Of a stretch of DNA of 27,946 nucleotides, positions 4,817-6,991 are shown piece by piece. Source of the stretch: a virus; the UHGV virus genome UHGV-0178950. One strand, given 5' to 3'. A program made the translations under genes and the position numbers. Under the pieces are notes generated by a model. That model worked only from the letters and a program-made list of their open reading frames with translations, was not told where the DNA came from and did no database searches. The first letter of the stretch is position 1. Each line of letters begins with the position of its first letter.

Positions 4817-6829
4817 ATGCTTAAATTTCGCCGCGATCTTAACGGTTACGGTGGAGTTATTAACGAAGGGCATAACGATCAATACGAATTTGAAATTGCT
4901 TTCTCCAGTGAACAGCCGTATCAGCGCCAATTCTGGGATGAGCAAAATCAAGAGATGGTGGTACTAGATGAAATTCTGGTACATACACCGGAAGCGGTTG
5001 ATCTGTCTCGTCTGAATAATAACGCTCCGTTGCTGTTCAATCATAATTTCGATAATCATATTGGTGTCGTTTGTAACGCTCGAATCGATGCGGATAACGT
5101 AGGTCGTGCTCTGGTTAAATTCTCTAAGCATGGCACTTTGGCTAATGATATTCGCAATAAAGTCATTGAAGGTACGATGGAAAAAATTTCTGTCGGTTAT
5201 GACATTAAAGAATATCACATCGACTACACCAAAGGACAATTGATTGTTACTAAGTGGGCACCCTATGAACTCTCATTTGTCACCGTTCCCGCAGACGATA
5301 CGGTCGGTTTAAATCGCTCTCTAAATACTATCACAGTTAATTTGGAGGCTAAACGCGATATGACTAAAGAACAAATCGAAGAAATCAAAGAAGAACAAGA
5401 AGCCGCTCAGGTTGAAGAAACTCCGGTAGAAGAAAATAAAGAACCGGAAGTTGAAGAAACTCAAGAGCGCCAAGTTGAAGAGAATAAAGAAGATGAAAAT
5501 CTCGAAGACGGAAAAGACGCTGAACATCCTGAAAGTGTTGATGATGATAGTTCAACTGTTCGGGAAGCAGAAGAAGTAAAAGAAGAACGTGAAGCCGCTC
5601 CGATTGAAGAAGAAAAAATCGAAGAAGTGGCTGAACGTTCCGAAGAAGACGAATTAGAAATTCGCGAAATTGCACGCGAGTTAAATATTAACGAAGACGA
5701 TGAAGAATTTAAACACGCATTGGCAAATAAAGAAATTACGCCGGAAGCATTCCGCACTAAGGCACTAAATAACATTACCAATGCTCAACGTAATAACGAA
5801 CAACAAATTAAGGACTCTAAAATGGAAAAAATCTTTGACCTGAACAACGTAATTCGCTCTCTGGTAGATGGTGCTGCTCTGGGCGCTCATGAAGCTGAAT
5901 ATTCCGCAATGGCTGCTACTGCAACTATGCAGCGTGGTCGTGCTGCTCGTGGTGGCTCTGTATTCGTTCCGGCTGCTGCTCTGCGTGCTGCTGCTGATGG
6001 TAACACCAAAGCTACTCTGACTGATATCACCGACGAAAAACTGCTGACTGAATCCTACATCGAAATGCTGATGCCTCAGTCCGTTCTGGGTCGTCTGGGT
6101 GTGACCGTCCTGTCTGGTCTGAATAGCCCGATTGCAGTACCAAAAATGACCGCTTCCAGCGTTGATGCTTTCGGTTTCGTTGATGAAAACGGTGCTGCAC
6201 CGGAAAGCAAAGCTGAATTTGCAAACGTGAAAATGGCTCCTAAGACGTTTGCTGGTGGGAACCCGATCAGCAGAGCTAGCATCAAGCAAGTTCCCGGCAT
6301 CGCTACCCTGATCACTGATCACATTAACAAATCTGTTCGGATCAAACTGGAACAACTGATTCTGTCTGATAAAGAAAATGCTCGTGGTCCGGCTGGTCTG
6401 GTTAAGCAACTGGTAGACGGTGGTCGCGTTACTAAGAAAGCCGCTTTTAGCTACAAAGACTTCCTGAAAGAAATTGCAGCACTGACCGACGCTGGCGTTC
6501 CGGCACAGTCCATCAAGTTTGCAATGAGCGGTGCAACTGCTGCTGAACTGGAATCTACCCTGAAAGATAACGGCGTTTCCGGTTATATCATCGAAAACGG
6601 CAAACTGGCTGGTTACGAAGTAGTTACTTCTGGTGTTATCCCGGCAGACCACATCGTTCTGGGCGATTTCAGCGGCATTATCGTTGGGGAATGGGGAGGT
6701 CTTGAGCTAGATCTGGACGATTCAACGTACCGTGCCCAGTCTGCGATCGTGCCTCGTGTATGGCTGGATTTGGACTACGTTGTAGCACAGCCGGAAGCTC
6801 TGAAAGTTCTTCACATCTCCGCTGAATGA
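4817..6829 (+). CDS. Prohead protease (HK97 S78-type) - acidic scaffold - major capsid protein fusion
   Basis: N-terminal domain has His76 (LLFNHNFDNHIG) and Ser125 (KISVGYD) spaced 49 residues apart as in HK97-type prohead proteases, then ELSFVTVPADDT; residues about 182-330 are Glu-rich low complexity; C-terminal about 340 aa has capsid-like composition and extreme optimal codon usage. Confidence 0.7.
   Translation: MLKFRRDLNGYGGVINEGHNDQYEFEIAFSSEQPYQRQFWDEQNQEMVVLDEILVHTPEAVDLSRLNNNAPLLFNHNFDNHIGVVCNARIDADNVGRALVKFSKHGTLANDIRNKVIEGTMEKISVGYDIKEYHIDYTKGQLIVTKWAPYELSFVTVPADDTVGLNRSLNTITVNLEAKRDMTKEQIEEIKEEQEAAQVEETPVEENKEPEVEETQERQVEENKEDENLEDGKDAEHPESVDDDSSTVREAEEVKEEREAAPIEEEKIEEVAERSEEDELEIREIARELNINEDDEEFKHALANKEITPEAFRTKALNNITNAQRNNEQQIKDSKMEKIFDLNNVIRSLVDGAALGAHEAEYSAMAATATMQRGRAARGGSVFVPAAALRAAADGNTKATLTDITDEKLLTESYIEMLMPQSVLGRLGVTVLSGLNSPIAVPKMTASSVDAFGFVDENGAAPESKAEFANVKMAPKTFAGGNPISRASIKQVPGIATLITDHINKSVRIKLEQLILSDKENARGPAGLVKQLVDGGRVTKKAAFSYKDFLKEIAALTDAGVPAQSIKFAMSGATAAELESTLKDNGVSGYIIENGKLAGYEVVTSGVIPADHIVLGDFSGIIVGEWGGLELDLDDSTYRAQSAIVPRVWLDLDYVVAQPEALKVLHISAE
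5360..6829 (+). CDS. Candidate internally initiated scaffold-capsid product, in frame within the protease-capsid ORF
   Basis: GGAGG at 5344-5348 followed by an in-frame ATG at 5360, exactly at the boundary between the protease domain and the Glu-rich segment (MTKEQIEEIKEE...). Confidence 0.35.
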   Translation: MTKEQIEEIKEEQEAAQVEETPVEENKEPEVEETQERQVEENKEDENLEDGKDAEHPESVDDDSSTVREAEEVKEEREAAPIEEEKIEEVAERSEEDELEIREIARELNINEDDEEFKHALANKEITPEAFRTKALNNITNAQRNNEQQIKDSKMEKIFDLNNVIRSLVDGAALGAHEAEYSAMAATATMQRGRAARGGSVFVPAAALRAAADGNTKATLTDITDEKLLTESYIEMLMPQSVLGRLGVTVLSGLNSPIAVPKMTASSVDAFGFVDENGAAPESKAEFANVKMAPKTFAGGNPISRASIKQVPGIATLITDHINKSVRIKLEQLILSDKENARGPAGLVKQLVDGGRVTKKAAFSYKDFLKEIAALTDAGVPAQSIKFAMSGATAAELESTLKDNGVSGYIIENGKLAGYEVVTSGVIPADHIVLGDFSGIIVGEWGGLELDLDDSTYRAQSAIVPRVWLDLDYVVAQPEALKVLHISAE

Positions 6830-6958
6830 ACTAGCGTAGAACCTTCTGAACCTTCCCCCGATTTGGGGGAAGAAAATCTGATTCCTAAACCGGAAGAAGA
6901 TTCCCAGACGGTTACGGCGAAAGCCACAGCTAAAAAACAGCGTAAAACTAAAGAATAA
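6830..6958 (+). other. In-frame 42-codon extension after the capsid TGA stop, ending TAA TAA; candidate readthrough product
   Basis: No stop in frame 0 for 42 codons after TGA at 6827-6829; encodes TSVEPSEPSPDLGEENLIPKPEEDSQTVTAKATAKKQRKTKE; paralogous to 12776-12901. Confidence 0.3.
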
Positions 6959-6963
6959 TAATT

Positions 6964-6991
6964 AGCCCTGCCTAACGGTGGGGCTTTTTTG
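6964..6991 (+). terminator. Rho-independent terminator after the capsid gene
   Basis: AGCCCTGCC-taac-GGTGGGGCT followed by TTTTTT. Confidence 0.7.

Follow-up and report, generated by a model that had tools for sequence, protein, structure and literature searches.

Comparative evidence consistent with programmed UGA readthrough in the capsid and tail tube genes of a siphovirus-type prophage

In the virus genome UHGV-0178950, a stretch of 27,946 nucleotides (the window) that comprises the late region of a siphovirus-type prophage, the gene for the HK97-type major capsid protein ends in a UGA codon behind which the reading frame stays open for another 42 codons. This raises the question of whether ribosomes make use of that frame, so that some of the capsid subunits carry an additional C-terminal peptide. 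The first-pass annotation, made from the letters of the window, had argued for exactly this: it described the 42 codons as encoding an acidic, Pro/Glu-rich linker followed by a basic tail, placed TAA TAA and a strong terminator directly behind them, and stated that the same arrangement recurs after the major tail gene. All of these elements were recovered at the positions listed in Table 1, with a translation that matches the one given before, and every comparative test applied here favors translation by in-frame UGA readthrough. Judged from these comparisons, programmed UGA readthrough probably decorates a minority of the head and tail subunits of this phage group.

Paired modules behind the capsid and tail tube genes

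Translation of frame 0 behind the capsid stop yields TSVEPSEPSPDLGEENLIPKPEEDSQTVTAKATAKKQRKTKE, and that behind the tail tube stop yields TNEELPLPESEPLPEHEAVVIPEVEEVTAKATAKRGRKAKN. The two modules are paralogous: both begin with TGA ACT A, both contain the identical 20-nt core GTTACGGCGAAAGCCACAGC, which is found nowhere else in the window, and they differ from each other by indels of 9 and 12 nt. A terminator scan of positions 4000-14500 ranked 6964-6985 and 12906-12930, the sites behind the two modules, as the best two terminator-like sites. A third copy of the module after another gene was not found, the maximum being two per contig. An open frame of this length would, taken alone, be unremarkable, as 42 codons remain open by chance with a probability of (61/64)^42, or about 0.13, and another open reading frame (ORF) of the window also has 42 open codons past its stop. 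Since a single open stretch is thus within chance, the case rests on the paralogy of the modules, on the exclusive use of TGA at these genes and on conservation in relatives. As a separate observation, the capsid and tube terminators are near-identical within each genome and different between genomes (AGCCCTGCC..GGTGGGGCT in E. coli vs GCCGTCC..GGGCGGC in Salmonella, L099 3190-3215 and 9510-9535), suggesting that terminators are homogenised within a genome.

Stop-codon usage in the window is strongly biased. TAA, often in tandem, ends 25 of the 27 ORFs, and TGA occurs solely at the capsid and tube genes, in both cases followed by ACTA. Similarly, a Salmonella relative has 15 TAA stops in addition to the capsid TGA-A, and a Providencia relative has 16 TAA and one TAG in addition to the capsid TGA-A, while relatives without the module (L097, L101, L102, L104) use TGA at two to four other genes. 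There are exceptions: in several E. coli relatives a further gene has a TGA stop, which is then followed by T, and these stops either lead directly into a terminator or have a back-up stop within three codons. Selection against accidental readthrough, or simply high expression, could account for the near-exclusive preference for TAA.

Conservation of the stop and of the frame behind it was assessed in intact IMG/VR relatives, to which the window was added, with capsid relatives at 86-93% protein identity; syntenic relatives in Salmonella and Providencia prophages were reached via homologues of the tube protein. Altogether, TGA-A, an open frame of 25-45 codons and the charge design of the peptide are retained in about 60 related prophages, whose hosts are E. 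coli, Salmonella and Providencia. The capsid TGA is followed by A in 32 of 32 intact IMG/VR relatives, some of which read UGA AAU at the stop, and in all 32 frame 0 is open for 28, 42, 43, 44 or 45 codons and then closed by TAA TAA. For the tube gene, TGA ACT was found in 24 of 24 relatives, with TAA after a further 36, 39 or 41 codons. None of the 18 unique capsid or 16 unique tail extensions contains a stop in frame 0, whereas every one of them has stops in frames +1 and +2. The conservation extends to distant capsid alleles. In three E. coli genomes (lineage B), the ORF encoding protease and capsid is only 37-38% identical to that of the window, and it ends in TGA ACT with the same module in frame, the extension being either 42 codons long or, through a new 27-nt deletion, 33 codons. 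The Salmonella capsid gene (51% identity) continues behind TGA ACT with the 33 codons TPVEPSEPLPDNGESETPSVTAKATKRGRKPKE, and that of Providencia (47% identity) with the 25 codons TNEELPEEEPLPVATEKSTKRRKSK. Thus, extensions of 25, 28, 33, 36, 39 and 41-45 codons occur, every variant being in frame. An alignment of relatives had been named in the first-pass annotation as a check, with stops or frameshifts in this region as the outcome that would speak against readthrough; the open frame proved to be conserved, and neither an internal stop nor a frameshift was seen in any variant (about 40 distinct sequences). No sense codon was found at the position of the stop among 171 capsid and 27 tube homologues from a collection of 5.8 billion proteins. 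The joint conservation of stop and open frame indicates that both are maintained, the one as a stop and the other as a reading frame. One candidate for a fused product, the 198-aa protein P0121, in which the tube protein continues into the extension with W at the stop, was rejected, as its DNA has TGA; the fusion, from a public metagenome (L096, ENA contig k141_243218), is due to gene calling with a code in which TGA specifies Trp. P0121 illustrates how such fused products can enter databases by accident.

The extensions also have the signature of coding sequence. Using a codon table derived from the genes of the window, with real gene segments of 126 nt as the control, codon log-odds in frame 0 of the extensions were 0.47-0.74 bits per codon compared to 0.58 +/- 0.22 for window genes, and about -0.7 to -1.2 in frames +1 and +2, similar to the off-frames of genes; intergenic DNA was negative in all frames. 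The acidic, Pro/Glu-rich stretch and the Lys/Arg-rich tip remain constant while the nucleotides change, with tips such as QRKTKE, ERKTKAK, VGRPPKAK, RGRKAKN, RSRKAKD, RGRKPKE and KRRKSK. The extensions are 25-45 residues of low complexity and matched no Pfam family above threshold. Tips with GRPPKAK are similar to an AT-hook: the tails KKVGRPPKAK and KKAGRPPKAKE of relatives scored 14.2-14.7 bits against the AT-hook family (PF02178), which is below the cut-off of 17.4, and the window's own tails, KKQRKTKE and KRGRKAKN, gave no Pfam match to it.

A positioned hairpin and explanations other than readthrough

Downstream of both stops lies an element that was absent from the first-pass annotation, a conserved hairpin with its base 10 nt past the UGA. 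Relative to shuffled controls, the fold z-score was -5.1 for the capsid extension alone and -6.2 with the terminator included, and -3.65 for the tail extension without its terminator. In every variant the hairpin starts at nucleotide 14, counting from the U of UGA, which leaves a 10-nt spacer, and its 3' end lies directly before UAC-GGCGAAAGCC. This register is shared by both capsid forms (long and short), all three tail forms, lineage B and the modules of Salmonella and Providencia (seven sequence families), while the stems of the families differ: AACC.UCUG / CAGA.GGUU, AAUUACCGGAA / UUCCGGUAGUU, AACUUC / GAAGUU, AACAACC / GGUUGUU and AGUUGCCGGAAG / CUUCCGGUAGCU. For a covariation analysis, 23 rows were aligned across the stop, the spacer, eight basal pairs and the mini hairpin, with a 4-nt placeholder standing in for the variable apex. 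In this alignment 90.5% of the cells pair, compared to 21-48% if the partners are slid by 1-3 columns, and six of the 11 pairs are changed on both sides. The covariation score was 0.320 vs 0.157 +/- 0.019 for shuffled alignments, none of 500 shuffles reaching 0.320, a value to which about seven lineages contribute and between which blocks recombine. The inner hairpin covaries as well, with CUUCCCCC/GGGGGAAG in E. coli and CUCUCCCC/GGGGAGAG in Salmonella, and variants of the GNRA mini hairpin keep their pairing (GGU/GCC, and GGA/UCC in Providencia). As several of these compensations are non-synonymous, RNA pairing is under selection as well as the frame, in part to the detriment of the peptide.

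Such constraint on the RNA might equally be expected if the element were an untranslated, structured 3' untranslated region (UTR) module that stabilises or processes the mRNA of the two late genes with the highest expression, the open frame being incidental. The strong folding (z about -3 to -6), the three helices with compensatory changes, some of them made by non-synonymous substitutions, the identity of the 20-nt core at synonymous sites in both paralogues and the weak selection on the peptide would all fit this explanation. However, RNA structure requires no frame, and yet the lengths are all multiples of three and only frame 0 is free of stops. In addition, a UTR would leave the gene-like codon usage, the tandem in-frame TAA and the use of TGA at only these genes unexplained; the charge pattern outlasts the replacement of the nucleotides, and part of the sequence lies within a normal coding region in Edwardsiella. 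We therefore consider an untranslated module unlikely.

Another reading takes the ribosome past the UGA and places the function in transcription. In both modules, as in all relatives, the stops of the extension adjoin the stem of the terminator or overlap with it, with TAA 2-7 nt from the stem, so that a ribosome reaching them might block the terminator hairpin and couple transcription of the downstream genes to readthrough, with the peptide as a by-product. The geometry is like that of leader-peptide attenuators, and the Rfam search of the modules, which gave no match at threshold to any known RNA family, returned a weak and non-significant match to Phe_leader (19.8 bits vs a gathering score of 55, E = 0.67). 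No alternative antiterminator pairing was found, however, and the minimum free energy folds of both modules keep the terminator intact and unpaired with upstream sequence. The conserved design of acidic linker and basic tip would be needless for such a device, which leaky terminators do not require in any case, and Salmonella retains the terminator after a tube gene without an extension. A regulatory role is not exclusive of readthrough that yields a displayed peptide and is compatible with it; as the explanation of the modules we regard it as distinctly improbable.

Homologues without the module show that a basic C-terminus can also be part of the ordinary protein. In a BLASTP comparison of the hypothetical readthrough product of the tube gene with a homologue from Edwardsiella tarda, the alignment runs through the stop, and the extension residues PESEPLPEHEAVVIPE align with PDA-PLATYHMNVIPE, a stretch that in Edwardsiella belongs to the ordinary ORF, whose end is ...AVAAKEK and TAA directly at the terminator. 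The tube proteins of other relatives have short built-in basic ends (...GLMGRK, ...ASGLRK, ...AASARK, ...LVKEK), and the Salmonella2 capsid protein ends in ...VEASKAK. The capsid genes of Proteus (L101 5570-5640) and Edwardsiella (L097 2787-2855) end in TGA-T and are followed by only 9-10 in-frame codons. Here, an ORF of 20-21 codons in the -1 frame starts with a GTG or ATG that overlaps the capsid TGA (GTGA / ATGA) and encodes a homologous basic tail, (M)ISQAVGSEVSVKKAKKAKAE and MIPTGREEVSVKSGRKPKTDN, which may represent a coupled small protein or a -1 frameshift product. Built-in tails, -1 ORFs and in-frame extensions together indicate that a basic C-terminal tip on the capsid or tube protein is a recurrent feature of this phage group which is reached by different genetic routes. 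We also observed a third capsid lineage with a TAA stop (L095 5060-5160, E. coli 2017.06.05CC; L091 3490-3600, phage DCP80), in which the -1 frame, beginning at an A-run (GUA AAA ACG, or GAA AAG), is open as far as a basic tail (...QASPAKVKKPRALKVK and ...AAPVKKSKSASG) that lies just in front of the terminator; such an arrangement may be a counterpart that works by frameshifting.

The built-in tails of the Edwardsiella and Proteus tube proteins and of the Salmonella2 capsid protein might suggest that the extensions are decaying remnants of a tail that was once fused and was then cut off by a nonsense mutation. A remnant would decay, yet about 40 distinct sequences are free of stops and frameshifts, and TGA and open frame persist in two genes and across capsid lineages that are 37-51% identical, which renders this origin very improbable. 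Finally, insertion of selenocysteine at the UGA, with the hairpin about 10 nt downstream acting as a bacterial selenocysteine insertion sequence (SECIS), can be dismissed for practical purposes, as the apical parts of the variants are unrelated and hence offer no conserved SelB-binding loop, and as neither a gathering-threshold nor a permissive Rfam search gave a SECIS match.

Proposed mechanism and points that weigh against it

From the comparisons above we infer readthrough itself, the inserted residue, the role of the hairpin, the exterior display and the function as follows. The module would be a conserved recoding element at the 3' end of those two genes whose products are most abundant in the virion. 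Most ribosomes would terminate at the UGA and release the normal capsid or tail tube protein. A minority would read the UGA with a near-cognate tRNA, for which Trp-tRNA is the likeliest candidate given its role at other UGA codons of E. coli, continue through the extension and stop at the TAA codons just before the terminator; for the capsid protein, the expected peptide spanning the stop would be ...LHISAE-W-TSVEPSEPSPDLGEENLIPK. UGA is the leakiest stop in E. coli and is read mainly as Trp, with Trp-tRNA competing with RF2 (PMC10570021, PMC11126739). The signal probably consists of UGA-A and the hairpin base exactly 10 nt downstream, a spacing that would place the hairpin at the mRNA entrance of the ribosome when the UGA occupies the A site. 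Stimulators of frameshifting and readthrough in other systems have a broadly similar geometry (PMC5009743, PMC3159437). The resulting subunit would carry a linker that is acidic, disordered and rich in Pro/Glu, ending in a short Lys/Arg-rich tip. In known phages, exterior additions are found at the C-termini of both HK97-type capsid proteins and lambda-type tube proteins; by analogy, the extension most likely lies on the outside of head and tail, in few copies. An AlphaFold model of the tube protein (mean predicted local distance difference test score, pLDDT, 72.9) had the tube domain of lambda gpV as its best match, indicating that the extension begins where gpV continues into an extra C-terminal domain. 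In lambda, this extra domain decorates the outside of the tube. The basic tip could bind polyanions such as the cell surface, lipopolysaccharide, capsule, mucus or DNA.

Other ways of expressing or decoding the extension were considered and rejected. Frameshifting into it is precluded by the closed +1 and +2 frames of every variant, and an independent small gene by the lack of a conserved start: the in-frame TTG of the capsid extension is TCG in L094 and has no Shine-Dalgarno sequence, and the 28-codon form has no candidate start at all. No suppressor tRNA was found in the window by ARAGORN or Rfam; a 91-nt tRNA-Glu called by ARAGORN at 7482-7572 on the minus strand lies inside an ORF, has no Rfam support and is probably a false positive.

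Several points weigh against this interpretation. Its support is comparative, from sequence and RNA, and the display on the exterior is argued by analogy. The independent lineages are few, about seven, and recombination moves blocks between them. Some relatives dispense with readthrough, as the Salmonella2 and Hafniaceae capsid genes end in TAA, and the tube genes of Salmonella and Providencia have short built-in tails only. Purifying selection on the peptide is weak, with ratios of non-synonymous to synonymous polymorphism (pN/pS) of 0.70 in the capsid extension and 0.43 in that of the tail, a level that a disordered linker would be expected to show. Within the shared VTAKATAK core, nearly all differences between relatives are non-synonymous and leave the mini hairpin untouched, a pattern that points to constraint at the level of the RNA, which could alone explain part of the conservation. 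Moreover, most natural E. coli isolates carry a fully active RF2 allele. With this allele, UGA-A is terminated fast, and the NudL and PheL readthrough products that are seen in K-12 vanish (PMC5373646). A stimulator, either a hairpin or a factor acting in trans, is therefore probably needed, and the hairpin described here is the obvious candidate.

Gene context and relation to known recoding systems

The modules, their RNA elements and the surrounding genes are listed in Table 1; further genes of the window encode chaperones, the tape measure protein and a tip protein. The capsid protein is encoded in one ORF together with the protease and a very acidic scaffold. At the internal start at 5822, the codon usage turns abruptly to highly optimised codons, and a Shine-Dalgarno-like AAGGA is present at 5810-5814, which suggests that the capsid protein is also translated alone from this start. 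At 7727-8560, between the head-completion genes and the fibre gene, we observed a 277-aa ORF that has no Pfam match and is a second paralogue of the tube protein, with a tail-tube-like N-terminal domain (phrog_158, E = 6.6e-9). The gp34-like fibre and the gp38-like adhesin flank the tail tube gene, an unusual place within the head-tail gene order. The pair 13502-13810 / 13819-14193 resembles tail assembly chaperones of the G/GT type, and as the -1 frame is open across GUA AAG UAA at 13801-13810, the usual -1 frameshift at A_AAG beside the stop looks possible.

Table 1. Coordinates of the two modules, their predicted RNA elements and neighboring genes in the window.
Feature	Position	Strand	Remarks
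Capsid stop UGA	6827-6829	+	context GAA UGA ACU A
Capsid in-frame extension, 42 codons	6830-6955	+	acidic Pro/Glu-rich linker and basic tail VTAKATAKKQRKTKE
Long imperfect capsid hairpin	6840-6913	+	base 10 nt past UGA; fold z-scores, register, covariation
Inner 8-bp hairpin of capsid copy	6852-6872	+	
Capsid mini hairpin GGC-GAAA-GCC	6916-6925	+	GNRA loop; inside shared 20-nt core
Tandem TAA TAA closing capsid extension	6956-6961	+	kept in all relatives
Capsid intrinsic terminator	6964-6991	+	G+C-rich 9-bp stem, 4-nt loop, T-run
Tail tube stop UGA	12773-12775	+	context GGA UGA ACU A
Tail tube in-frame extension, 41 codons	12776-12898	+	acidic linker, then VTAKATAKRGRKAKN
Tail hairpin	12786-12856	+	base 10 nt past UGA; register of capsid copy, different sequence
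Tail mini hairpin GGC-GAAA-GCC	12859-12868	+	
Tail mini hairpin GGCC-GCAA-GGCU	12881-12892	+	in basic-tail codons; variant AGCC...GGCU still pairs
TAA TTT TAA closing tail extension	12899-12907	+	two in-frame stops within three codons
Tail intrinsic terminator	12906-12936	+	near-identical to capsid terminator
Large terminase, lambda-type	778-2682		
Portal	3260-4771		
Protease, acidic scaffold and HK97-type capsid, one ORF	4817-6829	+	Pfam Peptidase_S78, Phage_capsid
Major capsid protein, coding part	5822-6829	+	internal ATG at 5822; phrog_617 major head protein; Pfam Phage_capsid
Fibre, T4 gp34-like	8639-12241		with S74 chaperone domain
Tail tube protein	12299-12775	+	phrog_158 major tail protein
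gp38-like adhesin	12950-13456		

Of 5,426 complete E. coli genomes, 58-61 (about 1%) carry a prophage of this family. Searches of 50,697 phage records by megablast and blastn yielded no useful match to a close cultured relative, and tblastn against these records gave one match at 39.5% identity (phage DCP80), all others being at 31% or below. Among species-representative genomes, no match was obtained by capsid alignment or by a degenerate pattern of the core. In RefSeq, the capsid gene is annotated as ending at the TGA, and the next 190 nt or so are left unannotated; the predicted readthrough products of such modules escape current annotation pipelines.

The closest mechanistic parallel, and the only natural case that is well studied, is the coat protein of the RNA phage Qbeta, where readthrough by about one in 15 ribosomes with insertion of Trp yields A1 (PMC8067240). 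As is proposed for the modules described here, an in-frame UGA of the major capsid gene of an E. coli virus is concerned, a minority of the product is extended, and the extension starts with a Pro-rich linker. The Qbeta stop, UAU UGA ACA, also has the UGA-AC context in common with GAA UGA ACU and GGA UGA ACU of the window. In contrast to Qbeta, which has an unrelated coat fold and a folded A1 extension of 196 residues, the window belongs to a tailed double-stranded DNA (dsDNA) prophage, would add 25-45 disordered residues, and also bears an extension on the tail tube gene. To our knowledge, a hairpin downstream of the Qbeta A1 stop has not been described as a stimulator.

Long forms of capsid and tail proteins that derive from frameshifting are known from T7/T3 (10A/10B), the Listeria phages A118, A500 and PSA (cps, tsh), Lactobacillus phage A2 and SPP1 (gp17.1*) (PMC5009743), and the C-terminal extension of T7 10B lies on the capsid surface, at a site used for phage display (PMC8811829). 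With these systems the modules would share two products from the major capsid and major tail genes, recoding at the 3' end and a long form in the minority. The members of this group, however, use -1 or +1 frameshifting and often (many members, not T7) add folded immunoglobulin (Ig)-like or fibronectin type 3 (FN3) domains, whereas the modules of the window provide a frame-0 extension, a short charged peptide without a Pfam domain. As the extension is in frame and has no Ig-like domain, it is not a member of the frameshift group. The Ig-like domain of lambda gpV is an addition at the same position, the end of a lambda-type tube domain, but it is constitutive, folded and present on every subunit, whereas the addition predicted here depends on readthrough and is disordered. 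In sum, the modules functionally resemble the frameshift-derived long forms and mechanistically resemble Qbeta A1.

RNA structures that stimulate readthrough are known from eukaryotic viruses, such as the pseudoknot of murine leukaemia virus (MuLV) and the extended 3' stem-loops of alphaviruses (PMC3159437, PMC5009743). The modules share with them a structure a few nucleotides past the leaky stop, 10 nt in this case, although the viral elements act on eukaryotic ribosomes. In MuLV, the spacer between stop and pseudoknot is 8 nt. The bacterial SECIS likewise combines a UGA with a hairpin just downstream, but requires a conserved SelB-binding apical loop, which is absent here. In a full-text literature search, we found neither an account of stop-codon readthrough for a capsid or tail gene of any tailed phage nor one of a hairpin-stimulated signal for near-cognate readthrough in bacteria. 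As a tentative proposal, to which we give rather less than even weight, the module may be the first dedicated cis signal for near-cognate readthrough in bacteria, composed of UGA-A, the 10-nt spacer, the hairpin and the GNRA mini hairpin. It would be portable between unrelated capsid alleles, would have been copied onto the tube gene, and would place polyanion-binding, AT-hook-like tips on the surface of head and tail, with the near-exclusive TAA elsewhere reflecting selection against accidental readthrough.

In tailed phages, minor long forms of capsid and tail proteins have so far been known only through frameshifting, and functional stop-codon readthrough in bacterial systems has been essentially confined to Qbeta-type RNA phages and selenocysteine. 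If the interpretation given here is true, dsDNA prophages of E. coli, Salmonella and Providencia would possess a third route, in the form of a conserved readthrough module that includes a positioned hairpin, and the module would provide a compact and testable bacterial readthrough element that may be useful for low-copy display on heads and tails. It would also tie the composition of the virion to the RF2 allele and the physiology of the host, because UGA readthrough varies with cyclic AMP (cAMP), temperature and the level of tRNA-Trp (PMC10570021, PMC11126739).

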